64,000 nt of DNA. Origin: an uncultured Chlamydiae bacterium (GTDB lineage: Bacteria; Chlamydiota; Chlamydiia; Chlamydiales; JAJFMB01). The translations under genes and the position numbers were made by a program. The stretch is taken from positions 2,592,001 through 2,656,000 of the forward strand of contig CAVOJR010000001.1 of NCBI GenBank assembly GCA_963696295.1, read 5' to 3'. The notes beneath the pieces are model-generated. The model saw nothing but the letters and a program-made list of their open reading frames with translations. It searched no databases and had not been told where the DNA came from. Shown piece after piece: positions 28,201 to 64,000 of this stretch (the stretch's first letter is position 1; every line of letters starts with the position of its first letter).

Positions 28201-29748
28201 TTAATAGACTTGCGTGCTTTCCTGTTGCGTTATCGGCGTGGTGATTGTTTCGGAGCTGACTTCGACAACCACGCGGCCTTCACCCGATTCTTTACCTTTG
28301 CCATCGACTCTCAAGTTGAGGCATTGTTTTGGCCACATCGTGGCAACGTGGAAAGTGACTGTATTTCCCGATACAGTTCCTTTAATATCTCCAGTAACTC
28401 CTATAGGCTGAACCTCTTTTGGGAAGCGGACGACCGCTTTCACATTAGAGTCCGGCTCAGGGCCCTGGTTTGTCAATTGGATATTATAGCTTGTCGAATC
28501 ATTGATGCAGATCGGGTCTTCTGTATCGCTGATGCGGACATGCAGGGAAGGGCGCCCTTTCCAACGGGTTGTCAGATCTGCGCAGCCATTGACTCCTTCA
28601 TAGGTATTAACAGTAGCCCGGTTTGTGACACAGCCCGGTGTGCAGGTTGTCAATGTGATGCCGAAAGTCACTTTCTCTCCGGGCTTCAGCTCTTTCAATT
28701 TCCAGACAGCCTGGTTGCCGCGAACCGTGGCGCCGTTAGCGGACACAATGGAAGTCGAATTAGCTGCGCTATCGCTTACAATAACGTTAGTGAGCGGCAG
28801 ATCTCCCTCATTTGTGACTGTGATTTGATAATCGGCATTTTTACCTAAAGTTTGCTCTTTTGGTCCCGTTTTGGCAATTTTCACATCGCAGCAGCAGATC
28901 GTAGTGCATGCCTGGCAGGATGCGGAATCCGCGTTGCAGGCAGTCACAACCGCCGTATTGCAGATATTACCTCTTTTTTTAGCGCAAAGAGTGATATCGA
29001 CACTTTTGCTTTCGCAAGGGGCAACGGTGCCAAAATTGTAGCAAACAGCCTTTTGGCCGCTGGAGTGCTCAAGACCGTCAGGAATATTATTCGTTAAAAC
29101 AACATTTTCTGCAGCGCAGCTGCCTTTATTTGTAACGGTGAAATGATAGGTGATCATTTCGCCCGGACCCGCTTTGGCAGGTCCGCAATTTTGGCAAACC
29201 AGTCTTGGCTTGGCGCAAACTAAAGAGCAGAAGCTGACAGGAGTCGCTTTTCCGCAGAAAGAAGCGCACAGTTCCCCTTCACACTCGCATTTGATCCATA
29301 CTTTTGCCAAAATACATTGACCGCATTTCATGGGGCCTATGTTCCATGTCAATACACTTCCTTCCGCTTTGGCCTCCGGAGCGCTCTTTATATAAGTCAC
29401 GCCTTCCGGTAATTGAGCATTAACCACGACGTCGCAAACGTCCTCGCAAGCTCTAATTTCAAATTCCAGCGGATACTGATCTCCCAGCAGGCACATTTTT
29501 GGGTTGGTGGCACGTATGATCAGGCCGTCGCGGCATTTCATTTCATTGACGTTAGGAAAACGGCATTTTGTGGAAGCCGGACAGAGCTCGTCGCAAACGA
29601 CGGGAGGCGCTTGATATTGGGTTTGATAAACAGGCTGAGAGCAGTTATTATAACTGCATCGCCCTTTATTGGATGCATTCCCCGACCATAACATGGTTGT
29701 TGTCACCATGATAAGCAGAGATGCGAATGTTACGATATATTTCTTCAT
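28201..29748 (-). CDS. omcB: Large cysteine-rich outer-membrane complex protein
   Basis: Very Cys-rich; DUF11-like repeats; DTEDPIC; C-terminal ESTQVY; downstream of omcA. Confidence 0.9.
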   Translation of the reverse strand: MKKYIVTFASLLIMVTTTMLWSGNASNKGRCSYNNCSQPVYQTQYQAPPVVCDELCPASTKCRFPNVNEMKCRDGLIIRATNPKMCLLGDQYPLEFEIRACEDVCDVVVNAQLPEGVTYIKSAPEAKAEGSVLTWNIGPMKCGQCILAKVWIKCECEGELCASFCGKATPVSFCSLVCAKPRLVCQNCGPAKAGPGEMITYHFTVTNKGSCAAENVVLTNNIPDGLEHSSGQKAVCYNFGTVAPCESKSVDITLCAKKRGNICNTAVVTACNADSASCQACTTICCCDVKIAKTGPKEQTLGKNADYQITVTNEGDLPLTNVIVSDSAANSTSIVSANGATVRGNQAVWKLKELKPGEKVTFGITLTTCTPGCVTNRATVNTYEGVNGCADLTTRWKGRPSLHVRISDTEDPICINDSTSYNIQLTNQGPEPDSNVKAVVRFPKEVQPIGVTGDIKGTVSGNTVTFHVATMWPKQCLNLRVDGKGKESGEGRVVVEVSSETITTPITQQESTQVY

Positions 29749-48389: not shown

Positions 48390-48471
48390 GGGGGTGTCGC
48401 ATAGCGGCAATTGCAAGGGACTGTAAATCCCTCGACTTCGGTCTTCGCTGGTTCGAGTCCAGCCGCCCCCA
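48390..48471 (+). tRNA. tRNA-Tyr(GTA), probable integration site
   Basis: Anticodon loop CTGTAAA; long variable arm; integrase about 285 bp downstream. Confidence 0.95.
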
Positions 48472-48755
48472 ATCCCTTGATAAACTAAGACTTAAGACAC
48501 AAATAAGTTACCAGTTTTTCGTTCTAAAGTGTGGAAATTCCCCACTTTTTCCCCAATGACACACAACAAAACGCGACAAAGTACAAACCTTTCGGAATCG
48601 CATGTTGTTAGTAAGTTTCTATTTTAGTGTGGAAAAATTGGGGAAAACCACTATTCTTCCCCCCATTGAAACATGTTTTTACGAGACAAAATCTTTCAAC
48701 AAGCAAGGGAATCGTAATCCCTTGACCGTGTTTTTTTGAGGAAAAAGGAGAAGAA

Positions 48756-49814
48756 ATGGCTTCGATCAAAATGAAAAAAGATAAAGATGGAAAAGTGCGC
48801 TTTTATGTGCAAGTGCGCATAAAAGGGTATCCCCAGCAAAATGCGGCATTTACAAGAAAGACCGATGCTGAAAGGTGGATTCAACAAACTGAGGCCGCGA
48901 TCCGGGAGGGTCGCCACTTTAAGACAGTGGAAGCGAAAAAGCATAGCGTTGGCCAAATGATCGATCGCTACATCAGAGATGTTCTGCCTACCAAGAAAAG
49001 GTCGGAGAAAAAGCAAACATCACAGCTTAACTGGTGGAAGGAGCGGATCGGCCATTGCCTATTATCTGATGTGACGCCAGCATTGATCGCCGAGCAAAGA
49101 GATTTTTTGCTTAAGGGCAAGACTATGAGAGGCAGTATCAGGAGCTCATCCACAGTTGTGCGGTATATGGCAGCTCTTTCCCACTCCTTTTCGATTGCGA
49201 TGAGAGAATGGGGTTGGATAGAAGATTCACCCTGCCGGAAAGTTTCAAAGCCCAAAGAGCCTCGCGGAAGAGTTCGCTTCCTCAACGAAGAAGAGAGGAT
49301 TTCATTGCTCCAAGCTTGTCGAGATAGTGAGAATCCCTATCTTTTCATCATCGTGGTTTTGACGCTTTCATGCGGCTTTAGGCAAGCAGAAGTGATGAAT
49401 TTGAAATGGAGCGCTATCGACCTGCAAAGGGGGCGCATAGTGCTGCACGAAACTAAAAATGGCGAAATTCGACAAGCGCCACTCGCCGGACTTGCTCTTG
49501 AATTGGTTGCTGCACTAGATAAAGTTAGAAGAATCGATACCCAGCTGCTATTTCCTGGGAAGTTTCCTAAGAAACCCATCATTATCCGCACTGCGTGGCT
49601 AAATGCATTGAAAAAAGCAAACATCGAGGACTTTCGATTTCATGACTTACGCCATTCGACAGCAAGTTATTTAGCCATGAATGGCGCAACCTTAGCTGAA
49701 ATTGCCGAGGTGCTCGGACATAAGACCTTGGCGATGGTCAAAAGATACGCTCACATTTCGGATACTCACACCTCGAAAGTGGTAGCTGATATGAATCAAA
49801 AAATATTTGGATAA
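48756..49814 (+). CDS. int: Tyrosine recombinase/integrase
   Basis: CGFRQAEV, TKNG, FHDLRH, LGHK and RY catalytic residues; AAGGAG SD. Confidence 0.95.
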   Translation: MASIKMKKDKDGKVRFYVQVRIKGYPQQNAAFTRKTDAERWIQQTEAAIREGRHFKTVEAKKHSVGQMIDRYIRDVLPTKKRSEKKQTSQLNWWKERIGHCLLSDVTPALIAEQRDFLLKGKTMRGSIRSSSTVVRYMAALSHSFSIAMREWGWIEDSPCRKVSKPKEPRGRVRFLNEEERISLLQACRDSENPYLFIIVVLTLSCGFRQAEVMNLKWSAIDLQRGRIVLHETKNGEIRQAPLAGLALELVAALDKVRRIDTQLLFPGKFPKKPIIIRTAWLNALKKANIEDFRFHDLRHSTASYLAMNGATLAEIAEVLGHKTLAMVKRYAHISDTHTSKVVADMNQKIFG

Positions 49815-49818
49815 AGAA

Positions 49819-50691
49819 ATGGAAAGCAAATATTTACTGATACCTCCTTCGTTCAAAGAACTTTTGAATCTGGAATATATTGGGATTCACGAGGCTGCGT
49901 TCCTGCTTTGTGACTGGCCAACACATGAGGGTGAACATTACTTCCCAAATCCCATGGAGCCGTTTAACCCTAAGGAATATGACGGCCGATTTAACCTGAT
50001 TTTCAGCGAGCTGAATAATGCTGTCACCTATAGAGAACTTCACTGCAAAAGATATACTGCTATCCTCGGGGTAGCTTTAAGTGTGAGGCCATACGATGTG
50101 ATTATCTGGGCTCTTCTTAAGAATAAGATTTTGCCAAAACCACTTCAAGCGGTCCTTGGACTTTCCCAGATGCCAAGCTCTGACTTCAATAGATCACGGA
50201 ATGCCTTTATCAACAAAGTTATCTTCCAATGTCTTTTTGTATCAGCTGCAGACGATCAAAGAGAAGACTTGCGCTACTACATTGATCATCCTTGGCTGCA
50301 AAAGAGGGGCTATATGGATGAAATAGAAAAGAAAGCACTCAAGGGACATCTGTTTGAGGCAATCAATTTTAAAGCAGATAAAGGGGGAAAATTGTCGAAG
50401 TATCTGTTGTCGATCACCAGGCTTGAAGAGGTTTTGAATCCTTTGGGGGAATACAACATCCTGGCATTGAAATTACTTATTGAAATTGTCTGCAATTTTG
50501 TTTTGCTTAAAGAAGTGGAGTTCACTCAAGAATCATTTGCGAAGGAAATCCACAATTACTCTGTATGCGCCCCTTATTTCAAGGAAGCCCCGCCTATTTT
50601 ACACAGGATACTAGTGATGATTTGCAAGGAGTTTGTCTGGAAAAGTCCAGTCGTGTATCAACCTGAACATAAACGAAAATTGGAGGAATGA
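49819..50691 (+). CDS. Hypothetical protein
   Basis: About 290-aa ORF directly after int. Confidence 0.7.
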   Translation: MESKYLLIPPSFKELLNLEYIGIHEAAFLLCDWPTHEGEHYFPNPMEPFNPKEYDGRFNLIFSELNNAVTYRELHCKRYTAILGVALSVRPYDVIIWALLKNKILPKPLQAVLGLSQMPSSDFNRSRNAFINKVIFQCLFVSAADDQREDLRYYIDHPWLQKRGYMDEIEKKALKGHLFEAINFKADKGGKLSKYLLSITRLEEVLNPLGEYNILALKLLIEIVCNFVLLKEVEFTQESFAKEIHNYSVCAPYFKEAPPILHRILVMICKEFVWKSPVVYQPEHKRKLEE

Positions 50692-50788
50692 TTTACCATG
50701 AGATGTCTATTCTTAGAAAGTTGCTGGGTGTTGTATTTTGTTTTGCAGAGCTTTGAATTGTTTCAGGGCTAAGAAAAGGAGAAGAAGA

Positions 50789-51010
50789 ATGACAGAAAAA
50801 AATAGATTTTTGACATGTGCGCAATGGGTTAAGGAGCATAGTTGGCCACCGGCTGGCGGCTTAAGACATTTGATTTTTTTTGCAGAACAAAATGGCTTCA
50901 GCAAAGTCATTCGGCGCGTTGGCCGGAGGGTGCTGATCAGTGAAAAAGACTTTTTTGAATGGATGGAAACAAGCAACCACGATAAGGAGCAATTATCCGC
51001 AATAAAGTAA
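50789..51010 (+). CDS. Excisionase/AlpA-like small DNA-binding protein
   Basis: AAGGAG SD; GLRHLIF..IRRVGRRVLI..FFEW winged-helix pattern. Confidence 0.65.
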   Translation: MTEKNRFLTCAQWVKEHSWPPAGGLRHLIFFAEQNGFSKVIRRVGRRVLISEKDFFEWMETSNHDKEQLSAIK

Positions 51011-51123
51011 TAGGGAATACATTTTTTAGTTGAAAAAGATAAATATTTTCTTATGTAAAAAAATTGAAATTTGATAAAATATAATAATTTAATAAGGAGT
51101 GGTTCATGCAGGGTGATGCAGAG

Positions 51124-51200
51124 AAAAAAAAGCCATGAAGAAGTTACAGCTTCATCATGGCGCGAAAAGATACCGAACGTATTCTTTCTCTGCCTCAGAT
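51124..51200 (-). ncRNA. Predicted antisense RNA of about 77 nt
   Basis: Minus-strand TGCTATAAT (51207-51215) and a terminator hairpin followed by T8 (51124-51161). Confidence 0.55.
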
Positions 51201-51275
51201 TAACATATTATAGCAATCGATTCAATTCGAATCATTACTCACCCCTGCATGGATCTCTTTTAAAAAGAGGTGACC

Positions 51276-51515
51276 ATGTCAACAGAAACCAATATTTTTC
51301 TTGATCGTCTCGAGAAGATTTCCCAAGAAAGGCCCTTTCTTACGAGCAAAGAGCTAGTGGAAGTGAGGGTTTTCGAAACCCTTCAAGATGCCCGAACAGC
51401 TAGGCTAAGCGGGCAAATTGCATTTTGGGAAATGTCCCCAAAATTTTTTGTCTGTCCCATTTCAGAAGTAGTTCGTTATTTGCTTGCGCGTCAAGGATAT
51501 AAGATCAATGAATAA
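51276..51515 (+). CDS. Small hypothetical protein, possibly HTH/Xis-like
   Basis: AAGAGG SD; FLTSKEL..F..P..EV..YL pattern. Confidence 0.6.
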   Translation: MSTETNIFLDRLEKISQERPFLTSKELVEVRVFETLQDARTARLSGQIAFWEMSPKFFVCPISEVVRYLLARQGYKINE

Positions 51516-51573
51516 GAGAAACATTTTGAGGCAATAAAAATGGCGCCCCTGGCGCCAAAGGAATATTTAACCG

Positions 51574-54251
51574 ATGATTGATCAAATCGTAAAGGAATTT
51601 GAAAAAAAAGTAAACGAAAATGGATATAATTATTTAAAAAAGCTTCATGATAATGCTAGAAATTTTCTACTGCAAAATGGAATTGAATATGATGGCGAAT
51701 TTTACGAAACGGCCGAAAATGAGATCATTAAGTTTAAGGTTCCACATCCCGAAAGCTCAAGAAAGCTAATTCAATGCTGGCTTAAGTGCTCATATCTTGA
51801 GCGCAAAAATGGAGATCCCGGCTTATGCATAACCTACGGTGCCTTCCACCCTACCCTACCGCAACATGACACAAAAACTTTTTGGATGGATGAAACCTTT
51901 CATCTTAGCGACGAGGAGCGGGCTGCTATTCAAGAGAGGCTGGCGATCAGTAGGCAAATGGCTGATGAGCGGGCAAAAGAGGAGAAAAAAATCGCCGATG
52001 CAAAAGCAGATTGGTGCGTCGAAAAATATCGAGGTGCCTCTCCACAAGGTCACAGTCCTTACTTTGACAGGAAAGGGATCACCCCGAGCGACATCCGATA
52101 TGAGGTTCGTCGCACTTATGCAGAGGATGGAACTGTTGCGGAAGAGACGATCGCTTTAATCCCCCTTAGGAATATTTCTGGAAAAATTCAAGGGCTTCAA
52201 GAGATTTACCCGACAAAAAGGCGCTTCGGTGATGATCCCAAGCCACGCGATAAAAACACCAATGGCACCTATACCTCCTGTTTCTTCACATTCGGCAAAA
52301 TCGAAGATGGCAAACCCATTTGCTTGGCCGAAGGCTATGCGACTGCAGGATCGATTTTCCAATCGATAAATACCACTACCCTAATGACAGTCTCCCGAGT
52401 CAACATTCAAAATGTCGTCAAGGCACTGAAACGGAAATATCCAAACAGCAATATCACCATATGCGCTGATGCCGACCCCGATGGTCTCAAAGATGCAACT
52501 GAGGCGGCGCGAAAGCTCAAATGCAAGTTAGCGGTGCCTAAATTCCCGGAAGGCAGAGACAAAGACGCGGAAGGAAATAGCCATAAAGATTTTAACGATT
52601 TGATGCTGGTGGCCGGCCGGGAAGAAGTTTCAAAACAAATTGAGGAAGCTGCCACCTTTGTAGAAGCCGAAATTGAAGGATCAAAGGTCCCAGAGATACG
52701 GCAAATTCCAGAGAATGGACTTCCTGTGATTAGGGTAACACCTGGCCAGCTCCATGTTATCGTGGACCTTTGCCAAACCGTTTTGCTCAATAACAGCCTG
52801 GGATTATTTCAACGAGGAGGTCAACTTGTCCGAATTATATCAGAAATTAATAAGCCTAAAAAAAATAAGCTCTTAGATAGGAACGGACGCGAAATTATTA
52901 AGCGTGACTCAGATTCACTATTAATTGCTGAAGTTGATCAAACATATCTAACTGAGTTACTGGGAAAATTTGCAAATTGGGCGACGTTTAACGCAAGAGC
53001 TGGAGAATGGTTTATCCGTGATCCATCCGAGAAGGCGGCAAAGACATTGCTTGCAAGAAGGGAATGGGATTTCCCGGTTTTGAGTGGGTTTATAAGAGCC
53101 CCTACGCTTCGTCCTGATGGAACAATACTGGATCGTGAAGGATATGATGAAGGAACAGGTTTATTTTTCGATGCGGGAGCCACTCAATTTGACCCCATCC
53201 CCGTTAACCCCAGCGAAGAAGACGCTCTTATTGCATTGTCGGTATTACAAGAACTACTTAAAGATTTTCCTTTTGAAAACGAAGAAAGTCAATCGGTCGC
53301 TTTATCCGCTATTTTGACCGGACTTGTGCGAAAATCGATTAGAACCGCACCTTTGCACGCATTTACCGCTCCAAAAATGGGAAGCGGTAAAAGTCTTCTA
53401 TGCGACGCGGTCGGCCTTATATGCACAGGCAGAAACAACAGCGTCCTTCCTCAGGCAAGCGATGAAGCAGAGGAAACCAAAAGACTTTTGGCGGTCCTTG
53501 CGGAAGGGGATCCTATTATTTGTTATGACAACGTTGAACGGCCAATTGAAAGCGCTGCCCTTTGTGCAGTATTGACTCAAGAGTTTTTCAAAAATAGAAT
53601 TTTAGGAAAAAGCAGCAATTTGACTGTGCCCACAAACGTACTCTTCATGGCCAACGGGAACAATTTAACTTTCGTTGGCGATATTTCAACAAGAGCTCTT
53701 CTTTGCAATCTTGATCCGCAATGTGAACGGCCAGAAGAACGATCATTTGTCATGGATTTGCGTGCACATATTTCTCAAAACCGGGCTTTATTTGTAAAAG
53801 CGGCTTTAACCATTCTGAGAGCTTACCATTGCGCAGGCAGACCACCCAGAATATTCCGCCATTCGGTCGGTTTGAACAATGGTCAGAATGGGTCAGGTCC
53901 AGTTTGGTTTGGCTGGGAATGAGGGATCCGTGTGCAACAAGAGAGCAAATAGAATGTGGTGATTTCGTTCGGCAGAAATTGGGAGATTTTCTTGCAGCTT
54001 GGTACGAACTTGTTGGCGACCTGAGTATCAAAACAAAAGACATCATCAGAAAAGTGGAGGGATCAGAAAACGAGTTTTTGAAAGAACATTTCAAAGATTT
54101 TGAAAAGAAAGATGGAAAAGTTTGCTCAATTAAATTGGGAGTCCATTTGAAAAAAATCAGCAAACGAATCGAAAACGGTTTTCGTCTTGAAAATAGCGGA
54201 AAATCACAAGGCTTTGATTTATGGAGGGTTAGAAAAATTGTGCTCAAATAA
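51574..54251 (+). CDS. TOPRIM primase fused to P-loop helicase, split by a -1 frameshift near 53846
   Basis: AEGYATA, ADAD and KDFNDL (TOPRIM); GSGKS, CYDNV and ANGNN (helicase); continues as QNIPPFGRFEQWSEWVR..WLG.RDP in the other frame. Confidence 0.85.
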
Positions 54252-54255
54252 AAAG

Positions 54256-54463
54256 TATTACTTCTGTGAGGGTTGTGAGGGATGTGAGGGTCTGGCATCA
54301 GGTCTAGAGTGTTTAGCAAAAGAAAAAAAAGTGCGGACATGTTCGTTTTTTTATGTATTCTTTTCTTTAAAACGTGCATCTTTTTGTAAAAATTTTCCCG
54401 TGCTAAACACTCTGGACCTAACGTACAACCCTCACATCCCTCACAACCCTCACAGAAGTAATA
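54256..54463. promoter_or_regulatory. Putative replication origin (inverted iteron arrays)
   Basis: Perfect 36-bp inverted repeat with 3x TGTGAGGG per arm, an inner 19-bp inverted repeat and an AT-rich centre. Confidence 0.7.
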
Positions 54464-54502
54464 TGAAATATTTCAATTTTTAAACATAAAAAAGGACTTA
54501 AA

Positions 54503-54811
54503 ATGGAAATTCAAAATTTCAAGTTGATAAACAAGGGCTACGTGGTAGCTCGATTTGACCTGCACATCGCCGAATGGGGCGGCATGACCATCAAGGAATG
54601 CACGCTCTTTGACAAAAACGGCAGTAAATGGGTTGCACCGCCACAGCGCAGTTTTGAGGCTGAAGGCAAAAAAGGCTATGTGTCTCTAGTTACATTCAGG
54701 AAGGAAATTTTCGAGAAAATTCAGGCGAAAGCAATAGAGCTTTTGGAGCAGGAAATGTCGAGTCCTTTATCCCCAAAAAATCAAGATGAACAGTTGGAGC
54801 TTCCATTTTGA
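54503..54811 (+). CDS. SpoVG-like nucleic-acid-binding protein
   Basis: VARFDL..MTIKECTL..NGSKWVAPPQR beta pattern; acidic LELPF tail as in SSBs. Confidence 0.55.
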   Translation: MEIQNFKLINKGYVVARFDLHIAEWGGMTIKECTLFDKNGSKWVAPPQRSFEAEGKKGYVSLVTFRKEIFEKIQAKAIELLEQEMSSPLSPKNQDEQLELPF

Positions 54812-56161
54812 AAATAAAACTGAACGCCAATATCGAAAATTCAGAAGCCGACGAAGAACTGCGCAGGCTCATCGTCAATGAAAACACCTTCGACAATCCC
54901 ATTTTCATTTCTAATGAGGAACAGGGGCGTTGGAACGGTGGCACGGAACCAACAATTAGAACGTATAAACGCGGAGACGATGGACGTTTGATACTGCCCC
55001 GTGGCTATGCGCGTACATTGCTGCTCCATTGTAAGGATCAGGAGATAAATCCTGAAATTGTCGATGAAAGAGTGACCACACCTCTTTCTTTTCCACCAGG
55101 ATTGAAAGGCGTGGAACTGCGTCCCTATCAAAACCGCTGTATCGAAGCGGCGATGAAATATGATCAAGGGCTTGTCGTTGTGCCAACGGGCGGTGGTAAA
55201 ACTCTTATCGCCCTCGAGTTAATTCGTTTGCGCCGCCAGAAAGCCATGGTAATCGTTCACCGGCGTGAGCTTTTAAAGCAATGGTGTGCTGTTATTGAGG
55301 AGCGCCTCGGTCTGAAAGCAGGTGTTATAGGTGAGGGGGAGTTTGATATAGGAGCCGAAATCTCGGTGGCGATGGTACAAACCCTAAATTCTTGTTCAGA
55401 TGAGACAAAAAAGATCGTAAATGATTTTGGTTTAATTATTTTGGATGAGGCCCATCACGCTCCAGCCTCCACCTTTTTTGATGTCATAGCTCAATTTCCG
55501 GCAAAATATCGTTACGGTGTCAGCGCAACGCCAACCCGTCGAGATTCTCTTGAGATGCTCATTTTCTACTCAATCGGGCCGATACTACAAGAAGTTACCC
55601 GCAGAGAAGTTGAAAGTGTTGGAGCAGTTGTTCCGGCAAAAATCCTCGTTCTCGACACAAAATTTAAGCCAAAGAGTTGTAATAGCTGGCATGAGTATAT
55701 GTCCATGCTTTCAGCAAATGGTGAAAGAAATAAGTTTATTGTCGATCTAGTTTGCAAAGATGATAAGCCGGTTTTGATCCTTTCCGATCGCGTGAGTCAT
55801 GTCGAGTTGATATCGGAATTTTTAAACAAACGAGGCATTGTCCATGTGGTCGCGCATGGGTCGCTTAAAGATCGCGATGACATCGTGCAGAGAATGAAAG
55901 AGTGCAGAATGACTGTTGCGACGGTCGGATTGCTCGGCGAGGGTGTCGATATTTCGCATTGGGAAAAGGTTATTCTAGCGTCCCCTTTTTTCTTCCGAAG
56001 TGAAGCTAATTCAAGCGATTGGTAGGGCGGTGAGGGCCGCGCCTGGGAAGACGGAAGCCACTATTTTTGATCTCAAAGATGACTGCGGCTTTGCCGGCGC
56101 GAGCTTTAAAAAGCGACACGAAATTTATCGAAAACATGGAATTAAAGTTTTTTTCAATTAA
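54808..56161 (+). CDS. SF2 DExH helicase (RadD/UvsW/XPB-like), split by a +1 frameshift at about 55990
   Basis: LRPYQ, PTGGGKT, LDEAHH, SATP and GEGVD; motif VI QAIGRAVR lies in the shifted frame. Confidence 0.85.
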
Positions 56162-56170
56162 GGAACTAAC

Positions 56171-56656
56171 ATGGAAATAAAAATTAGAGAATTTTATCCG
56201 CTCGTGGTAGGCGACGGCCGTATATCAGGGACCATGCGCGTGCTTGTCGAAAATCTCGGGTTGGAATTGCTCGGCGTATTCATCACGAAGAACAAAAATG
56301 GCTGGATTGTACAGTTGCCTCAGCAGCGATCTCTCCATCATGTGACAGGAGATCCAGTCCGATTTCCCATCCTCAGCTTTGTCGATACCATAAAGCAAAA
56401 TGCTCTTGTGGGAGCCATTAGAAAGCAGGCTCCAGCCTTCATTGAGGCATGGATAAAAGCCAAAGGTCCCGGCTATGTCTTTAAGCAGAAAAAAACCGAC
56501 CTCACCAAAACAATTCCAACGAAAGAAAAACAGCAGCAACAAGAAAAGGCGCAGCCAGCCCTTGCAAATGCAACTGAGGGCAAGCAAATGGTCTCCAGCG
56601 CGTTATCAGGAGAGTGGAGGGATCCACCGAAAAAGAAAACCACAAAAAGGAGATAA
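56171..56656 (+). CDS. Second SpoVG-like protein with basic tail
   Basis: LGLELLGVFITKNKNGWIVQLPQQ resembles the 54503 ORF pattern. Confidence 0.5.
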   Translation: MEIKIREFYPLVVGDGRISGTMRVLVENLGLELLGVFITKNKNGWIVQLPQQRSLHHVTGDPVRFPILSFVDTIKQNALVGAIRKQAPAFIEAWIKAKGPGYVFKQKKTDLTKTIPTKEKQQQQEKAQPALANATEGKQMVSSALSGEWRDPPKKKTTKRR

Positions 56657-56658
56657 AA

Positions 56659-57414
56659 ATGTTTTTTGACTATGAATTGACAAATGTTGAAGAAAAAATG
56701 TTAACGGATATTGTTAGTAAAAACAATGTTAAGTCGAATAGGGCAAAAATAATCTTGCTTATGAGAGGAAAATATAGAAAAGGATTTAATCATGTAATAT
56801 CTAAACAATTAAGTTTGAGTGTTACTTATATTATGAATACAGTCCAAAAATTTCGAAAAAAAAGAATGGGAATATTCGAAACCGAGGGACCGGGTTCTGG
56901 AAGAAAACAAGGCTCTGTAAGAGTGAATGATGCAAAACTAATAGATCTATTCGAAAAAGGTATGACTCTTTCAGAAATTTCTAATGAAGTGGGATATGGT
57001 ATCTCTATAGTTAGCCGTAGATTTAAAAAATTGGGGATTAAACCAATAAGAAAAAGAAAAGTAGGAAGTAAATATAAAACGAAAAAAAATTATTACCATG
57101 TAACATGTCCAAATCGTTTGATTTCTATCCTTAATGAAGGATTAAAGCCAAATGAGCATAATGAAATATTTTTGTTCGACAATAAAAAAGACGCTTTAAA
57201 TATTGCAGTGAATCAATGTATTATTTTAAGCGATTATGCGCTCTTAAAAGTTAAATTATTTGAAGACATGTTAGAGGAAGATAATGTAGCTGAATTAATA
57301 ACTGGAAAACAATATTTATTGAAAAATGTTGCAATACCAAAAAAGCAAATTAAACTTGTTGATTGTTATAAAATATTTGATCTAGTAACCAGCAACAAAA
57401 GAGCTGCACGATGA
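56659..57414 (+). CDS. HTH protein with C-terminal ADP-ribosyltransferase-like (Tpt1/KptA-like) domain
   Basis: Two HTH-like segments; YYHVT..RLISILNEGLKP..IFLF..A..YALLKV..IP..I; very AT-rich. Confidence 0.5.
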   Translation: MFFDYELTNVEEKMLTDIVSKNNVKSNRAKIILLMRGKYRKGFNHVISKQLSLSVTYIMNTVQKFRKKRMGIFETEGPGSGRKQGSVRVNDAKLIDLFEKGMTLSEISNEVGYGISIVSRRFKKLGIKPIRKRKVGSKYKTKKNYYHVTCPNRLISILNEGLKPNEHNEIFLFDNKKDALNIAVNQCIILSDYALLKVKLFEDMLEEDNVAELITGKQYLLKNVAIPKKQIKLVDCYKIFDLVTSNKRAAR

Positions 57415-57443
57415 GACAGCGAATAGAATAACTCTCCACAATA

Positions 57444-58019
57444 ATGATAAAGAATATGACTAAAACAATCCCGATCAAAGAGATAATGGACGACCTCCCC
57501 CTCACCCGGGAACAGGTGGCAGCCAAGATAAAGGAGATCGAAGACGATACGGCAGAATTATATGGTTCTATTGTCCGCGCCAGCGTCGATCAAACGCTTG
57601 CTTTAGTGCACGCCATTGGCGCAAAAAATCAACCCCGCCTCTTGCAGCATATTGTCGGTGAAATGGATAATGACATCCTGACGCGCCTTGAGAAAATAGC
57701 GATTGCCCTATCATGTGAGGAGGTGGAAAGTGTCAGCGAAATATTTAATCAGTCGTACGGCTTTCAGCCCCCTTCAGCAGAAACAATCGCCCAGGCCACC
57801 GAATTCCTCAAAAAAATTGTTTCTCTAGATGATGATCCTGAAGCAAAAGCACATCAACTGGCAGCTCATGCCCGGGATATATATTTCCTAGCGAGCGCCA
57901 TAGCTATCGCGAATCTCGGGGAAAATTATAGGCTGGCGACGTTCGATCGGATATGCCAATTGCCTTTAGGGGATATTCAGAAGATGATAAAACTTTTTGA
58001 CGAGCTTGTTGTAAAATGA
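57444..58019 (+). CDS. Hypothetical helical protein
   Basis: 191-aa ORF co-oriented within the element. Confidence 0.7.
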   Translation: MIKNMTKTIPIKEIMDDLPLTREQVAAKIKEIEDDTAELYGSIVRASVDQTLALVHAIGAKNQPRLLQHIVGEMDNDILTRLEKIAIALSCEEVESVSEIFNQSYGFQPPSAETIAQATEFLKKIVSLDDDPEAKAHQLAAHARDIYFLASAIAIANLGENYRLATFDRICQLPLGDIQKMIKLFDELVVK

Positions 58020-58059
58020 GAATAGCTTTACTATAAATAATTTAAACACAAAGGTTTTT

Positions 58060-58368
58060 ATGACGAAAAGAAAATCTATCGATAGTTTATTGCGCGAATT
58101 GAAATTCGCATCGGACGAATGCTGGCAAGCCAAACTTGCGACAAATGACGTAGCCAAGCGACACGCCCCGCTCTGTGCTCAAATTGTTGAGGTGCTAGGT
58201 GTTCCGGCTTTAATCAACCAACGGCTAGCGTTAAGGACAAAAGAGACAGATGGTCGTCCGGTCACTTCCGCTGATTTTTGGGAAAATGAGGACATGATCA
58301 TCGCTCTTTACGAGCACTACTTGGATGCGATCGAATTTGTAAAGGAGGGAGCTGATGGGAGCACCTAA
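58060..58368 (+). CDS. Hypothetical protein
   Basis: 102-aa ORF overlapping terS. Confidence 0.65.
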   Translation: MTKRKSIDSLLRELKFASDECWQAKLATNDVAKRHAPLCAQIVEVLGVPALINQRLALRTKETDGRPVTSADFWENEDMIIALYEHYLDAIEFVKEGADGST

Positions 58369-58795
58369 AGGGCATGCGCCCTATCCCGGTTGCGAAACAG
58401 GTGGAAGACCAAAGAAGTACACGCCGGAATTCATTGAATCTGAAGCTGATGCTCTCATTGAGTGGTTAAAGAAGGGGGATTTTATTTGGTTTGAACGGTT
58501 TGCGCTGCAGCGAGGTTATGATGCCAATTTATTAAGCCTTTGGGCTTCTGAAAATAAAAAGTTTTCGGGAGCGTATGAATTAGCTAAAACACATCAGAAG
58601 ATTTTGTTAATAGAAAAAGGTCTAAAGAAACAATATTGTTACAATATGGTTCAACTTTTATTAGGTCACCATTATCAGATATTCTCAAAGCAGGAGACGA
58701 AGCTTTCTGGAGATGCGCAGAACCCCCTTCAATTCATCCTCTCAAATATCGACGGCTCTACAAAGGACCTAGTGAATGACGTTGAAGCAGAGTGA
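58355..58795 (+). CDS. terS: Terminase small subunit
   Basis: MGAPKG..GGRPKKYTPE N-terminus; overlaps terL. Confidence 0.75.
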   Translation: MGAPKGHAPYPGCETGGRPKKYTPEFIESEADALIEWLKKGDFIWFERFALQRGYDANLLSLWASENKKFSGAYELAKTHQKILLIEKGLKKQYCYNMVQLLLGHHYQIFSKQETKLSGDAQNPLQFILSNIDGSTKDLVNDVEAE

Positions 58796-60299
58796 TATCC
58801 AGCTGGCCCAAAAGTGTCTTGCAGATCCGCTGTGGCGAATAAACCACTTGTACCACATAGTCGACAAGAGGGGTCAACAGGTAGTATTTCGACTTAATTG
58901 GGCGCAAGAAGAACTGTATAATAATATGTGGTTTTGCAATGTCATTTTAAAGGCACGTCAATTGGGAATATCGACTTTTATTTGTCTTTTATTTCTCGAT
59001 CGCTGCATTTTTAATTCCAATGTCTCCGCCGGGATCATCGCCCACACCCTAGAGGACGGGCAGCAGATGTTTCGTAGAGTAAAGCACGCCTATGATTGCT
59101 TGCCTGCAGAAATCCGCGCCCTGGTCACGGCCGACAATGACACGGCGGGGATGCTCAAGTTCTCCAATGGATCCTCACTACGTGTTGCGACATCCCTCCG
59201 CTCTTCAACAGTGCAATATTTGCACGTTAGCGAATTTGCGAAGATTTGCAGCCGCTACCCGGAAAAGGCAAGGGAGGTCATGACCGGCGCGCTCAATACG
59301 ATCAGTAGCGACCAGTATGTTTTCGTCGAATCGACGGCGGAAGGTCGCGAGGGGTCTTTTTTCGACATGGTACAGCGGGCTAGGGCACTTCAGGAATCTG
59401 GTGAGAGGCTCACTTCGTTGGACTATAAATTTTTCTTCTTCCCTTGGCATCGCTGCCCTGAGTACACGCTACGAGATAACGTCATCATACCCCCGGAAAC
59501 AGCTAAATACTTCGAGGAATTGGAGGCTAAGGGGATCCGTCTTTGGCCCGCACAAAAACATTGGTACGTTAAAAAACAGGAGACACAACAATCGGATATG
59601 ATGCGGGAGTATCCATCCGATCCCGACGAGTCCTTCCACACCTCCCTTGAAGGCGCGTACTATTCCCGGCAATTGATGCAGGCGAGGACCGAGAAGCGCA
59701 TCTGTTTTCTGCCTCATGACCCGAATTTGCCCGTGTCTACCTCTTGGGATTTGGGCTTCGGCGACTCTACGAGCATTTGGTTTTTCCAGATTTACGAAAA
59801 AGAGATCCGGTTTATCGAGTACTATGAGAACAGCGGTGAGCCGCTTACTTTTTACCTCAAACTGCTTCAAGATCGGCCGTATCAATACCACAAGCATTTA
59901 GTGCCGCATGACGCTGGTGTGCATGAATTTAGTACCGGCCTATCACGTGTGGAGGTGGCGAGGAAACTTGGTTTCACCTTTACGAAGGTGCCTGATATTG
60001 GCTTGGACTCGGGCATCGATGCGGTCAGGAATGTGCTTTCGCGCTGCTTCTTTGACAAAGAGAAGTGTGCCGGAGGGATCAAGTGCTTGGAGTCATATCG
60101 CAGGGCCTGGAATGATGCTCATGGCTGTTGGTCCAGCAAACCGCATCATGACAAATTCTCCCATGGGGCCGATGCTTTTCGCATGATGGCAGTGGGGCTT
60201 CGCTTGGTCGAGAGGAGCATGAGCTATGATCAGTCAGATGGCGGGCGCACGCTTGGCTACACACCATATCCCGGCGGAAAACCGAAATCGATTTTCTGA
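58776..60299 (+). CDS. terL: Terminase large subunit
   Basis: ILKARQLGIST (Walker A), LHVSEFA (Walker B), ESTAEG, SWDLGFGD and SHGADAFR nuclease motifs. Confidence 0.93.
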   Translation: MTLKQSDIQLAQKCLADPLWRINHLYHIVDKRGQQVVFRLNWAQEELYNNMWFCNVILKARQLGISTFICLLFLDRCIFNSNVSAGIIAHTLEDGQQMFRRVKHAYDCLPAEIRALVTADNDTAGMLKFSNGSSLRVATSLRSSTVQYLHVSEFAKICSRYPEKAREVMTGALNTISSDQYVFVESTAEGREGSFFDMVQRARALQESGERLTSLDYKFFFFPWHRCPEYTLRDNVIIPPETAKYFEELEAKGIRLWPAQKHWYVKKQETQQSDMMREYPSDPDESFHTSLEGAYYSRQLMQARTEKRICFLPHDPNLPVSTSWDLGFGDSTSIWFFQIYEKEIRFIEYYENSGEPLTFYLKLLQDRPYQYHKHLVPHDAGVHEFSTGLSRVEVARKLGFTFTKVPDIGLDSGIDAVRNVLSRCFFDKEKCAGGIKCLESYRRAWNDAHGCWSSKPHHDKFSHGADAFRMMAVGLRLVERSMSYDQSDGGRTLGYTPYPGGKPKSIF

Positions 60300-60408
60300 T
60301 CCTACAGGAACAGTATTAATCAAAAATAATTCGTTTTTTCCTATGAAAATGCCTCAAAATATAGTAAAATTAAGGATTTAATTCATCTGTTTTTTTTGGA
60401 GTTAAATC

Positions 60409-61485
60409 ATGGTCCAAGTTTTGCCATCACGAGAACAAAGCTTTCTACAATCCTTATTCGGAGGCGCGGCAGCCGGAGCGGAGGCGACGGGCAAAATGCT
60501 TCCACAGTTGCAGCAGATGCAACAGCAGAAACAGCGGGCGCAGGACTACAGCAAAGCCCTTGGAGGCATCGAAAAGATCTACGCCAACCCCGATTTGACC
60601 GAGCAACAAAAGCTGATTTCAGCCTATAAAGAGCTCGGCTCACACCCAGAACTTGCGCCGCACCTGGGTAGCCAGCTGACACGGGCAGGAGCTCAGCAAG
60701 AGAGTTTCAAAGACAAGCTGATGAAACAGCAGCAATTGGATCAGTCCTTCCAGAAGATTCAGCAAATGTACGCCGATCCCAACCTCACCGACGAGCAGAA
60801 GGTTTTCGGGGTCTATCAAGAGCTTGCGCAGAATCCTACCTTGGCCGCCAGTCTGACCAGTGCCATGCAGAAACCGGCAAAGACCCGCGGCGAAGACATA
60901 GCAGGCCAGCAGTATGCCCGGGGCTACGATGCGATAGTTTCCGGTGATACTTCTGCCCTCAACGAAGTCCTGCACGATCCGGAAACATCCTACGCCGTAA
61001 AAAGGCAGCTTACCGACCTTCGCGACAAGTATGAGACCCGAAAAGGGGTGCAGTCCAGGGAGCTTCGACAACGTCAGTCGATGGTCCAAAAAAGCTACAA
61101 GCAAGCCATTGAGGCTCAGAAAAAGATTTTGGACAATGTCTATACCGACGACAAAGAGAAGCCAGCGATTAGGAAAGAGATCAAGCGCCTGGAAGCCCTG
61201 GAAAAACATGATTTGAAGAAACTGACCAAGAACCCCGACAGTTACCCCTCCCTCGCCCTCTGGAACAATCTGGATCCCGACTACTTTCCTGAAGAGACCG
61301 AAGAAGAAGAGGAGCTCTTCACAGAAAGAGAGCAACCAGCTGAGGAGAAAAGCGATGTCGATGAGCGCGTCGAGTTTTTGAATGGGACTTTTCCCCCTCT
61401 TCAGTTCAAGGGTAAGAAAAAGCAGGACAAATCAGGCAGAGTATATGAATCGGACGGTAAGACATGGCGACTAGTACAAGGATAG
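60409..61485 (+). CDS. Putative internal virion/ejection-like protein
   Basis: Gly/Ala N-terminus; Gln-rich helices; internal repeat (IYANPDLTEQQK / MYADPNLTDEQK); C-terminal YESDGKTW. Confidence 0.5.
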   Translation: MVQVLPSREQSFLQSLFGGAAAGAEATGKMLPQLQQMQQQKQRAQDYSKALGGIEKIYANPDLTEQQKLISAYKELGSHPELAPHLGSQLTRAGAQQESFKDKLMKQQQLDQSFQKIQQMYADPNLTDEQKVFGVYQELAQNPTLAASLTSAMQKPAKTRGEDIAGQQYARGYDAIVSGDTSALNEVLHDPETSYAVKRQLTDLRDKYETRKGVQSRELRQRQSMVQKSYKQAIEAQKKILDNVYTDDKEKPAIRKEIKRLEALEKHDLKKLTKNPDSYPSLALWNNLDPDYFPEETEEEEELFTEREQPAEEKSDVDERVEFLNGTFPPLQFKGKKKQDKSGRVYESDGKTWRLVQG

Positions 61486-64000
61486 GGTTGGATGAGTTCA
61501 CGGACCTATCCGATGAATTCACCGATTTTGAACCAACTCCACAGGCAAAACCACAATTTTCCATGGAAAAAGGTGGTAAAGCATCACGTTTTGCCAATGA
61601 ATTTACGGACTTTTCCGACGAATTCAGCGATATTGAGTCAAATGAGCCAAATGAGTCAATCGCTAAGCGGGCAGCGCACACCCCCTACGACGTGCCGGAG
61701 CTTACTCCTGAGCAGACAAAGAAGATGTCGCCGGCAGAGCGGCTACAATATGTGAAAGACTTGGCTACCGAGCGGGAATACAGACAGAGCAAAGGGGTGA
61801 CTAAGGGTCTTTTATCCGGCGCAACCCTTGGCCTATCTGAGAAGATTCCAGGACTTGCCCCGGAAGAAGGTGACTTTCTTATGGGCTTCGGTGAATTTAT
61901 GGGGAGTGCCCTTCCAATTAGCAAGCTTTACAGCGTCCTTGGCGGCCCCTTGGTCAAACTGGCTGCAAAGAGCCCTAAGTATGCCAATGCCCTCCAATCT
62001 CTCGCCCGCATGACCGGCTTTGGTTTAACCGGCGCGACGTATGAAGGTGCCAAGGAGACCATTAAGACCGGCGAAGTGCCGTCCCCCGATGAGCTGGTCA
62101 AGTATGGCGCGCAGTGGGCTGCCTTTGATGGAGCGCTTCAGCTATTGGGTAAAGCAGCCGCCCCCTTTCTCAACAAAATGAAGAGTGTGGCTGAAACCAA
62201 TAAGATCCCCGAGCGAGAAGTGCTGAATACCGTGATGGACAGCTTGGCCGATCGCAAGATCAGCATTGAAGAGGATCCAGCAGCAGCGATAAAAGCGGCC
62301 GAGGACATCCTTGCCGACTACCCCCGCAAGATGCAATCGGCAAGGGAGGAGCGCATCTCCGCCTTGAAGGCCAAAGAGGCCGAAGCCGAAGCCAAGATCA
62401 CCGAGCCTTTCAAGCAAAAGATTGAGAATGTGGAAGGGCAGCAAAAGCATGTGATTGAAGGGCGCAAAGAAGAGGTGAAAAGGGCCGAGGAATCCTTTGA
62501 TAAAAAAAGAGAACAGCTACAAGAAAGATCCACAGACCTTGACAGGGAAATAGACACTAAGCTGGAGACCTTTGCCGAAAAGGAAGAGGCAATCACCTCC
62601 CAGTTTGAATCGCAAAAAGAGCAGCAGATCGACAAACTTCGCAAGCAGTCCGAAAAGGAGCTTTCCGCTAAGACCCGCGACATTGAGAAGACGATCACCA
62701 CCTTGGAAAAAGAAATTGATAAGCGCAAAGCGAAGTCTGTGAAAGAAGTGGCGGCCGTCGAATCCCAAATTGTGAAAGCCAAGGAAAAGGGGCAGCCCAC
62801 AAAGCGCCTTGAGAACGCAAAAGACTCCCTGCAAAACAAAGCTGACAGGCACATTGAATCTCTGCAAAGTGCAATAGACAAACAGCAGCAGCGCATCGAT
62901 GTCTTCAGGGATAAAGCAGCCGCGGCCCTGGAAACAAAGATTGATAAAATAGCCGCCAAGGACCTCCCTTCCTCTGCCCTGGCTCCCATCGAAAAGGGGA
63001 TGAACACCCTTGAGAAGGAGATCGCCAAGAAAAAGAAGATCATTGCCGACTCAGAAACACAGCTGGCTAAAGAGAAAAACCTCAAAATCGCCGAACTTAA
63101 AAAAGACGCAGAGGCCAAGCTGAAGCAGCTGGAAGGTAAGAAGGGGGAGATCGAAGCCAAACAGGCTGAACGCTTGAAATTACAGCGCGCTAAAGTATAC
63201 CGCGAGCGCCACCCCGAGATCAAAGTGACTGCCGGCAAAAAACTCCCGGCTGTACGTGCCCAGGCCGTCACCGAGCCCATTATCGAAACTACCGGCAAAG
63301 GTGCAGCTGAGCGCATCGAGCATCCGAAAAAGGGAATCGATAAGATCATCGAGAAGATGAATAATTTCGTTCAGGCAGCCAAAACCCCTAAGCAGAGCTT
63401 AAAGCGCCTTGGAGAGGGAATAAACGAGGCTGTGTTCAATGCTTTGGCCCCGCTTGAGAAAGCCGAAGCGGGAGTGCCCGTTCCTGAACGCGTTTCGACC
63501 AAAATTAAGCTTGCCCAATCCGTTGCATCTGAGATTGACTCCGTGCTTGAGAATGGCATCTTCAGCAACCTCACCGGCAAGTTTGAGCATGGCGGCTTAA
63601 AGGAAGCCTATGGCGATCTGACTTGGAAAAAGCTGTCAAAGGGCCTCAAGGAAGGGGAATTCAGTCTTGAGGATCTCGATGCCTACCGCACCTCTAAAAT
63701 TGCCCTGAAGCGCCAATCTGAGGGCAAGAAAACGGGGATAGACACTAAGAAATCTGTCCAAGATATCGCCCGGCTAAAGAGCAAATACGAGCCCATTGAC
63801 AAACGGATCCGCGATTTCCAGAAAGCGACACTGGTCACCTACGGCAAGGATCTACTCGGCAAGGACCTGATTGCCGATTGGAACAAAGACTACTACAGCC
63901 CCCTTTATCGCATCATGGAAGAAGGCAAGGATGCCATACTTTCCGCCGGATCTCTCAAGCCAAAGCAACCATTCAAAAAGATGGTTGGCAGTGAGCGCAA
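61464..64000 (+). CDS. Large coiled-coil protein of more than 845 aa, putative ejection/polyvalent protein (3' truncated)
   Basis: Manual translation from ATG 61464 (MATSTRIGLDEFTDLSDEF..) shows no stop before the window end; absent from the ORF track. Confidence 0.85.
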   Translation, partial: MATSTRIGLDEFTDLSDEFTDFEPTPQAKPQFSMEKGGKASRFANEFTDFSDEFSDIESNEPNESIAKRAAHTPYDVPELTPEQTKKMSPAERLQYVKDLATEREYRQSKGVTKGLLSGATLGLSEKIPGLAPEEGDFLMGFGEFMGSALPISKLYSVLGGPLVKLAAKSPKYANALQSLARMTGFGLTGATYEGAKETIKTGEVPSPDELVKYGAQWAAFDGALQLLGKAAAPFLNKMKSVAETNKIPEREVLNTVMDSLADRKISIEEDPAAAIKAAEDILADYPRKMQSAREERISALKAKEAEAEAKITEPFKQKIENVEGQQKHVIEGRKEEVKRAEESFDKKREQLQERSTDLDREIDTKLETFAEKEEAITSQFESQKEQQIDKLRKQSEKELSAKTRDIEKTITTLEKEIDKRKAKSVKEVAAVESQIVKAKEKGQPTKRLENAKDSLQNKADRHIESLQSAIDKQQQRIDVFRDKAAAALETKIDKIAAKDLPSSALAPIEKGMNTLEKEIAKKKKIIADSETQLAKEKNLKIAELKKDAEAKLKQLEGKKGEIEAKQAERLKLQRAKVYRERHPEIKVTAGKKLPAVRAQAVTEPIIETTGKGAAERIEHPKKGIDKIIEKMNNFVQAAKTPKQSLKRLGEGINEAVFNALAPLEKAEAGVPVPERVSTKIKLAQSVASEIDSVLENGIFSNLTGKFEHGGLKEAYGDLTWKKLSKGLKEGEFSLEDLDAYRTSKIALKRQSEGKKTGIDTKKSVQDIARLKSKYEPIDKRIRDFQKATLVTYGKDLLGKDLIADWNKDYYSPLYRIMEEGKDAILSAGSLKPKQPFKKMVGSER

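Follow-up and report, generated by a model that had tools for sequence, protein, structure and literature searches.

What kind of mobile element sits behind a tRNA-Tyr gene of an uncultured member of the Chlamydiae, a phage satellite or a prophage? The DNA that we analysed (the window) is a stretch of 64,000 nucleotides, G000:C1:2592001-2656000, where G000 is the genome that holds it (assembly GCA_963696295.1, two contigs, 97% complete). An initial annotation had proposed that the genes that follow the tRNA form either an undescribed satellite class or a compact podovirus-type prophage. We find a 17.8-kb island at this place, and we consider it likely that it is a satellite which hijacks the particles of 40-kb short-tailed phages with its own packaging motor and ejection proteins. 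We favour this reading because the island encodes both subunits of the terminase and two predicted injection proteins, but has no genes for a shell or a tail.

Boundaries and gene content of the island

The integration target is tRNA-Tyr(GTA). A duplicate of the 3' end of this tRNA was found 2.2 kb past the end of the window: attR (C1:2658221-2658274) is identical to attL over 54/54 bp and lies 318 bp beyond the end of the last gene, ORF1479 (C1:2657903); the distance from attL to attR is 17,802 bp. The gene content that had been read from the window (integrase, xis-like gene, primase-helicase, origin, superfamily 2 (SF2) helicase, TerS, TerL and virion-like genes, all after the tRNA) is confirmed, with the named genes all on the forward strand. 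The features are the following, where ORF is an open reading frame, HTH is helix-turn-helix, and percentages are identities to the homologs named.

48390..48471, +: tRNA-Tyr(GTA), integration target (ARAGORN)
48419..48472, +: attL core, 54 bp, 3' part of tRNA-Tyr (100% identical copy 17,802 bp downstream)
48756..49814, +: tyrosine integrase, 352 aa (PF00589 1.4e-29, phrog_1 5e-62)
49807..50691, +: ORF294, in the variable slot after int (without Pfam or PHROG match)
50738..51010, +: xis/AlpA-like small HTH protein (PF12728 (HTH_17), weak, E 0.012)
51270..51515, +: ORF81, second small HTH-like ORF (30% match in the tRNA-Thr element of G000)
51574..54251, +: Toprim primase-helicase, 782 aa + 140 aa, frame change near 53850 (phrog_29234, phrog_2249)
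54256..54463, no strand: predicted replication origin, inverted iteron-like repeats (71-nt arms, 86% complementary)
54503..54811, +: ORF102a, small protein also in complete podophages (28-40% in G401, G408, G409, G411 and a G149 phage contig)
54808..56161, +: SF2 helicase, 405 aa + 53 aa, frame change near 55990 (phrog_16, 1e-68, on both pieces)
56171..56656, +: ORF161, common to related elements and podophages (28-36% in G405, G095, G401, G284 and G149)
56614..57414, +: ORF266, HTH-containing (weak HTH matches)
57444..58368, +: ORF191 and ORF102b, upstream of terS (among the relatives compared, only capsid-less or portal-unknown ones have homologs)
58355..58795, +: TerS, 146 aa (phrog_3064 4e-6; PF16677 (P22 gp3) E 0.011)
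58776..60299, +: TerL, 507 aa, intact (phrog_2 3e-32)
60409..61485, +: ORF358, predicted second ejection protein (hhalign N-terminal profile match to phage second ejection-position genes)
61464..64000, continuing to C1:2657903, +: ORF1479, LPD38, predicted third (large) ejection protein (PF18857 7e-22)

The PHROG profiles agree with the names first given to the integrase (phrog_1), primase (phrog_29234), SF2 helicase (phrog_16), TerS (phrog_3064) and TerL (phrog_2). The assignment of the host to the chlamydiae also stands, as the window contains ORFs that we take to be OmcB-like (28204-29748, 515 aa, 35 Cys) and SycD-like (14833-15342). A chimeric join at the tRNA is unlikely, because the tRNA-Thr/tRNA-Tyr neighbourhood is common to G000 and its relatives G194, G276 and G277.

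Absence of portal, capsid and tail genes

After TerL, the island contains only ORF358 and ORF1479, and then attR. Pfam and PHROG scans of 17 element ORFs gave no match to a capsid, portal, tail, head-tail adaptor or connector. Over the whole G000 genome, there is no match to phrog_156, phrog_1357, PF05065 or PF04860, nor to our local profiles of the portal, capsid, tube and nozzle; the control search with phrog_1357 matched nowhere, while the same family does match the capsids of G284 and G401. In 119 ORFs (at least 90 aa) from 11 related elements and 11 ORFs from a second G000 element at a tRNA-Leu, a capsid, portal or tail match was likewise missing, with one exception among the 130, a NUDIX protein that matches the C-terminal end of a portal PHROG. 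The scan of the 119 ORFs left out the TerS, TerL and integrase clusters and kept the best five families per protein. No remnant of a portal or capsid gene was seen in any element region. A 362-aa cargo ORF of locus L484 had a weak unfiltered score with a local portal profile; since its matches are to cargo genes in other elements, we did not take it for a portal.

With shell genes missing from both the element and the genome, the compact-prophage half of the initial proposal is therefore unsupported: attR follows the large gene, at the place where a portal-capsid-tail cluster was looked for, and the portal, scaffold, capsid, tube and nozzle are lacking. The satellite half is supported. What links the island to podoviruses is the terminase and the two last genes, which are common to the element and complete podophages.

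The terminase and its relatives in Chlamydiota

Residues K59, E153, E185, D325, D379 and D466 of TerL are invariant across 21 sequences. The ATPase and nuclease residues, which we take to be these on the basis of familiar motifs and a match to T4 gp17, are kept. Matches to TerL occur in 62 of the 401 genomes of the phylum; near-full-length copies number 26, with 50-62% identity, in 22 other genomes. A TerS homolog lies beside TerL in 26/26 regions. No TerL of a plasmid or cultured phage reaches at least 60% identity among the matches listed, the best of which are at 47-49%.

We fetched 25 regions around these relatives. Fifteen include a tRNA, and in 11 of the 15 a duplicate of the tRNA end encloses terS-terL. 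These 11 att-bounded relatives measure 10.0-24.1 kb and are inserted at tRNA-Ser, Met, Thr, Leu, Tyr, Asn, Phe or Lys; the weakest att duplicate is that of G276 (42 bp at 86%). Their usual gene order is int, variable ORF, small HTH gene, primase/helicase (of several types), terS, terL and cargo. Elements of this capsid-less terS-terL family are present in G194 and G276 at the same tRNA-Tyr locus, and L484 has the same gene order as G000 from the helicase to the LPD38 gene. The ratio of nonsynonymous to synonymous substitution rates (dN/dS) of TerL ranges over 0.057-0.088 in those element pairs that are not saturated at synonymous sites (5 of 14); TerL is under purifying selection across the relatives.

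The two genes downstream of terL

The N-termini of five ORF358-type proteins match the second gene after the nozzle in seven phages (hhalign 86.5%, E 4.6e-6), while control comparisons of the ORF358 profile with first- or third-position phage genes stay under 1%. The seven phages are complete or near-complete; one of them was first noticed by a similar profile, at the same gene position. ORF1479 is orthologous to the last gene of the virion cluster of the complete podophages G410 (44% over 934 aa) and G411 (42% over 874 aa). The orthology rests on G410 and G411, because the N-terminal profile of the ORF1479 family did not match the third-position genes of four other phages. The second and third ejection-position genes are thus present by homology; the first was not found in the tRNA-Tyr element of G000. 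We predict, from homology and position, that ORF358 and ORF1479 act in DNA ejection.

This prediction fits what is known of the domain. LPD38 is confined to phage-type polyvalent proteins (PMC5512222), and is found in phi24B gp47, a protein present in virions and proposed to be an ejection protein (10.64898/2026.04.10.717836). In P22, the DNA conduit is made of three ejection proteins, and changes in two of them escape exclusion by SieA (PMC10883804). Structural searches gave no significant match for ORF358 in PDB and BFVD, nor for residues 681-1479 of ORF1479 in PDB and VIA wide. The ORF358 model has a predicted template modelling score of 0.35, and its top PDB rows are the pre-ejectosome of cyanophage A4 (E 0.12 and 0.54, TM 0.17). 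In the ESM Atlas, ORF358 scores 0.88 to viral clusters and 0.83 to an ejection-protein cluster at rank 29, which are below reliable scores.

Ejection-type genes also occur in capsid-less contexts in G388, G095, G322, G088, L484 and G405. The tRNA-Leu element of G000 encodes a fused, ejection-like protein of 940 aa, which matches a phage protein (E 1e-49) and whose first 37 residues are 78% identical to those of ORF358. Within the element family the ejection pair is accessory. The C-terminus of ORF1479 matches 4/400 genomes (G005 left out); in IMG/VR, a scan with the single protein gave no match and an alignment-based search then gave 2. It was not found in 5 IMG/VR records with a close TerL, and kinship of TerL is therefore no predictor of the type of ejection gene.

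A second LPD38 lineage was observed in L049:4952-9661, L195:5320-9351 and L484:10861-15825. Identity among its members, whose elements come from different families of chlamydiae, is 68-81%, against only about 23% to ORF1479; this suggests that the ejection module spread horizontally in recent times.

Probable helper phages and exchange of the terminase

The portal family phrog_156 matches 15/381 genomes of the phylum, and the G284 capsid 8/401. An apparently complete podophage is located at G284:C1:42000-79000 (L061, L062, L074), in a 137-kb contig and between host genes, many of which match G000 at 23-70%. It has TerS, portal, capsid and tail genes, three post-nozzle genes, and a TerL of the same family as that of the element, in two ORFs with about 3.5 kb between them; neither an integrase nor an att site was detected for this phage. 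Capsid or portal remnants are also present in host-gene contigs of G171 and G086.

In the complete podophages G410 (40,573 bp) and G411 (40,286 bp), both of which have terminal repeats, TerL is followed by the portal, a gene of scaffold size, the capsid, the tube, the nozzle and then three more genes, of which the third is the LPD38 gene; the capsid of these two phages is 43-44% identical to that of G284. More generally, complete or partial podophages from IMG/VR and metagenomes have a TerL that is 52-58% identical to that of G000 and is placed within the chlamydial clade; one of them, G401 (41 kb), has ORF102a and ORF161 as well. Short-tailed phages of 40 kb probably infect chlamydiae and are probably the helpers.

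Two further phage loci were seen. G409 (L480-L483) is a 73.5-kb IMG/VR record with two portal-capsid-tail clusters, probably two phages or tandem prophages. At G157:C8:9202-10953 (L495) there is a portal gene of P22 type. Its contig is 19 kb long and is binned with a 1.2-Mb genome of a small-genome family (f4); no host genes tie this contig to its bin, and it may be misbinned.

In the TerL tree, element and phage sequences intermix. The tree (IQ-TREE) holds 28 of 66 TerL rows, those of known context plus two outgroups, and the capsid-less label changes 5 times along it, at least 4 of which are forced. A single ancient origin of the element TerLs was rejected, as holding the 13 capsid-less rows together gives p-AU 2e-56 in the approximately unbiased (AU) test, whose groups were set by gene content, although two FastTree trees had already been inspected at that point. 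Since element and phage TerLs are intermixed, the terminase module has therefore been captured or exchanged between phages and elements several times.

Free and element-sized forms

The IMG/VR record G405 (18,194 bp) has a 127-bp direct terminal repeat and encodes two integrases, a primase, a helicase, TerS, TerL and three ejection-position genes, without a capsid. Its TerL is 71% identical to that of G234, and a chlamydial chromosome has genes that match the toxin-antitoxin pair of G405 at 93/83% identity. Because the junction appears to fall inside a gene, closure of a loop by att repeats is an unlikely origin of this record. Comparison with the chlamydial loci analysed did not locate a tRNA-like attP in circular G405, and the exact 54-bp att core of the island has no match in IMG/VR.

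A tree of ORF1479 was made with 48 close database homologs, from which one fragment was dropped. In the clade that contains G000, 8 of the 16 other members are on contigs of 16.7-18.9 kb and none on contigs of 37-43 kb; outside this clade, 16 of 31 are on contigs of 37-43 kb and one on 18.9 kb (Fisher p 8e-6, which is overstated since kin are not independent). The element-sized lineage of ORF1479 is nested among phage-sized ones.

Alternative explanations

Several observations weigh against the satellite reading. The TerL pairs that involve G000 are synonymously saturated (proportions of nonsynonymous and synonymous differences, pN 0.27-0.29 and pS 0.78-0.88), and the frameshifts in the primase and SF2 helicase of G000 may be decay. 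Only 2 of the 12 att-bounded elements with this type of TerL carry the ejection pair (G000 and G388). The contigs of 16.7-18.9 kb are known by their size alone, and att repeats can make an integrated element assemble separately. The hosts of G410, G411 and G401 are assigned by gene sharing only, most of the other portal and capsid matches are on small or phage-only contigs that are possibly misbinned, and no helper resides in G000. Full-length element TerL is present in none of the 15 portal-bearing genomes (of 381), a draw that probably did not include G388. Last, the element TerLs do not form one clade, as would also result from repeated decay of prophages.

The island could then be what is left of an integrated podophage that lost the stretch from the portal to the first ejection gene and is now degrading. 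Its terL and ejection genes stand in phage order, 109 bp apart, as a single deletion would leave them, and both the two frameshifts and the mixing of element TerLs among phage TerLs fit decay. However, the left half (int, xis, primase, helicase, iteron origin) differs from that of the complete phages, which have an O-like initiator and RecT/Erf; 12 att-bounded elements, inserted at various tRNAs, have the capsid-less design, with TerL dN/dS under 0.09; attL and attR are identical, one capsid-less relative is assembled in circular form, and portal or capsid remnants are lacking from every element region. We do not take the two frameshifts as proof of decay, since the assembly also breaks host genes. 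Prophage decay is largely refuted for the element family, and we consider it unlikely for the island. An artefact, in which phage and host DNA would have been joined by the assembly, is extremely unlikely: the assembly does have indel errors, but both ends of the island carry the same 54-bp fragment of the tRNA, family elements occupy the same locus in G194 and G276, and L484 repeats the gene order from the helicase to the LPD38 gene.

Two other explanations differ in what the island would be for. It might be an anti-phage interference island, whose terminase and ejection proteins mainly poison the assembly of incoming podophages, its own spread being secondary. The defence-type cargo found after terL in many relatives would suit this, as would the conflicts among phages in which P22-like ejection proteins serve as exchangeable targets (PMC10883804); on the other hand, the invariant ATPase and nuclease residues of TerL would be needless in a decoy, and integration, replication and the circular form point to self-mobilisation. 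We find interference as the main role quite unlikely, although interference and piracy are compatible and not exclusive. It might also be a host-serving transducing device, packaged from the integrated state so that helper heads carry mainly the downstream chromosome. There is a precedent in the lateral transduction by phage-inducible chromosomal islands (PICI; PMC12829572), an own TerS and TerL would free packaging from the motor of the helper, and G000 has three such islands. But the family shows no sign of domestication, with its patchy occurrence, differing tRNA sites and variable content, which makes this explanation very unlikely; transduction would more plausibly result from the satellite cycle than be what the cycle is for.

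A possible satellite cycle

We lean slightly towards a broader form of the satellite reading, according to which the island is the type member of an undescribed satellite family, widespread in Chlamydiota, that borrows only the empty shell and the tail of podophages and brings its own motor and, in one branch, its own ejectosome; the helpers would be an unrecognised lineage of tailed double-stranded DNA phages of about 40 kb with intracellular chlamydiae as hosts, and satellites and helpers would jointly form a route of headful transduction by which these bacteria exchange genes. In the cycle that we propose, infection by a helper would trigger excision by Xis and Int, and the excised circle would replicate from the inverted-repeat origin by means of its own primase and helicase. 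The own TerS and TerL would start at a pac site in the element DNA, dock on the helper portal and fill helper heads, with a little over two copies of the element per 40-kb headful unless a small-head gene exists. ORF358 and ORF1479 would be loaded in place of, or beside, the proteins of the helper and would build the conduit for DNA delivery; such a conduit could pass an entry exclusion aimed at helper ejection proteins, or spoil helper particles. In the next host, the DNA would integrate at a tRNA. Packaging in situ could also move the downstream chromosome, as PICIs do: these package in situ and move DNA downstream of attB (PMC12829572).

Comparison with known systems

Like PICIs and the related SaPIs, the element has an integrase, a putative small regulator, a primase-replicase and terS in this order, a size within 10-24 kb, no tail or holin genes, and a probable need for a helper (PMC10085698). 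Of the features by which PICIs are recognised, an integrase with att duplication, a primase-replicase module and a small terminase are present. Unlike PICIs, which typically lack other structural genes, it has an intact TerL and two ejection-type genes, and terL is what separates capsid-forming PICIs (cf-PICI) from PICIs (de Sousa et al. 2023, PMC10085698). Its probable helpers, podophages, and its host phylum, Chlamydiota, also set it apart. With cf-PICIs it has in common an own TerS and TerL, the presumed use of part of a helper virion and hijacking genes that derive from phages and were gained more than once (PMC10085698). However, cf-PICIs make their own heads (capsid, portal, connector, adaptor) and take tails (PMC10085698), while the element has none of these genes; it would obtain head and tail alike from the helper, and contribute the motor and the internal injection proteins.

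The resemblance to P4-like satellites presumably lies in a tRNA-targeting integrase, a putative small regulator, and a primase-helicase followed by an iteron origin. P4 uses the terminase of its helper and has none of its own, unlike the element with its TerS and TerL, and the Sid, Psu and Delta families have no match among the 17 element ORFs scanned. The element is outside PICI, cf-PICI and P4 membership, though it would work like a PICI. To podophages that are P22-like or phi24B-like (G410, G411, G401, G284) it is similar in TerS-TerL, in the ORF102a and ORF161 families and in the second and third ejection-position genes, including LPD38; these phages are nevertheless about 36-41 kb long and have a portal, scaffold, capsid, tube, nozzle and O-like initiator, whereas the element is 17.8 kb long, att-bounded and shell-less.

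Similar islands are already in print. PnaK_GI2 of Protochlamydia is a 15,175-bp island downstream of tRNA-Thr, with a putative terL and cargo, and has the same anatomy; in the accessible part of that paper it is noted as a genomic island only, without a satellite reading, family, helper or ejection genes (PMC5010888). The putative satellite G8 from cryoconite is circular (15.8 kb), with a prim-pol, a P4-type integrase and a terminase, and also has a phage tail gene and ParB; the accessible part of the source mentions neither a link to chlamydiae nor an ejection module (PMC4490671). A group of terminase and tail genes has been published on two chlamydial plasmids, not read as a satellite in the accessible text. 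The double-stranded DNA element that the initial annotation saw in a chlamydia is real; genes of double-stranded DNA phages in chlamydiae are not wholly new, given these plasmid genes and the tRNA-Thr island with terL. In the literature covered, which does not include supplements and most subscription papers, we found no description of such a satellite family.

Chlamydiamicroviruses are small single-stranded DNA phages. The isolated phages of chlamydiae belong to this group (PMC5010888). That selection keeps a terminase in many islands of chlamydiae implies contact with tailed phages within the eukaryotic hosts, frequent enough to sustain parasites of these phages; G410, G411, G401 and the G284 prophage are complete candidate genomes of such phages. 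If the satellite reading is true, there is a third division of labour between satellite and helper: where PICIs contribute only TerS and cf-PICIs the head, the element contributes the motor and the proteins for DNA delivery. Swapping ejection proteins could be a route around entry exclusion. The cargo after terL makes the element family a candidate vehicle for gene flow among environmental chlamydiae.

Replication genes and state of this copy

Homologs of the xis-like HTH gene stand at the same position in related elements; the gene has no match to the AlpA family in Pfam and PHROG scans, and its HTH_17 match is weak (E 0.012). For ORF294, no homolog was found among the related loci compared. 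In G405, an HTH_17 ORF of a size similar to ORF81 precedes the primase. The region directly after the primase consists of short repeated units, and its 71-nt inverted repeat is the longest of 62 inverted pairs in the region (the next is 31 nt). Comparable inverted repeats, with unrelated units, follow the primase in 5 of the 7 relatives inspected, as would be expected of an origin paired with its own primase.

Homologs of ORF191 and ORF102b are found, among the loci compared, in G095 and in G112, L384 and L484. It is possible that the two are helper-interference genes or candidates for a small-head gene. The ESM Atlas score of ORF102b is 0.79, below the reliable level; no element ORF matches a capsid-morphogenesis family in Pfam or PHROG, and ORF191 and ORF102b are without a family.

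In both the primase and the SF2 helicase, the reading frame changes at a short run of one nucleotide and divides the gene in two; positions 349-721 and 721-861 of phrog_29234 fall on the two primase pieces. In L484, the primase is one ORF of 900 aa and the helicase one of 499 aa. Of 122 host loci tested, 4 are broken in the G000 assembly, one of them the single EF-Tu gene, and the two breaks in the element may be assembly errors. The reading frames of the integrase, TerS, TerL, ORF358 and ORF1479 are open. The G+C content is 0.42 from int to terS and 0.50-0.51 in terL, ORF358 and ORF1479, a step that suggests two modules with different histories.

An indel patch of the assembly was seen at G000:C1:2140381-2143037, where genes that we take to be EF-Tu and two neighbouring essential genes are frameshifted; errors of this kind may distort other observations on G000.

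Other elements and cargo

G000 holds two more islands. The one at tRNA-Leu (C1:2157070-2174329, L208) is 17.2 kb long, with a 62-bp repeat and a DnaB-like helicase, and has no capsid. Its TerL is of another type, which matches 10/391 genomes and is 39-43% identical to that of phage contigs in G149 and G395. The third, at tRNA-Thr(CGT) (C1:1453891-1474522, 46-bp repeat, 20.6 kb), has the same backbone as the tRNA-Tyr island, is full of insertion sequences and lacks a terminase. Two TerL genes only were found in G000.

The cargo after terL is of defence type in many relatives (type I restriction-modification-like genes, HNH, toxin-antitoxin), and acetyltransferase genes also occur there. The genes after terL are presumably a Kdp-like potassium transport and sensor set at G234:C1:2799178-2806106, and a type I restriction-modification-like set at G147:C1:1997680-2006565. 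At G186:C28:13364-30750 (L054), the cargo includes acetyltransferase-family and ABC-transporter genes and a nucleotidyltransferase-like ORF (PHROG matches), which we take to resemble resistance-type genes.

Last, outside attR (C1:2658461-2664186), there are low-G+C genes for a phrog_1244 ORF, an HTH protein, an AlbA_2/Schlafen protein and an HNH nuclease, possibly the remains of older insertions at the tRNA-Tyr site.

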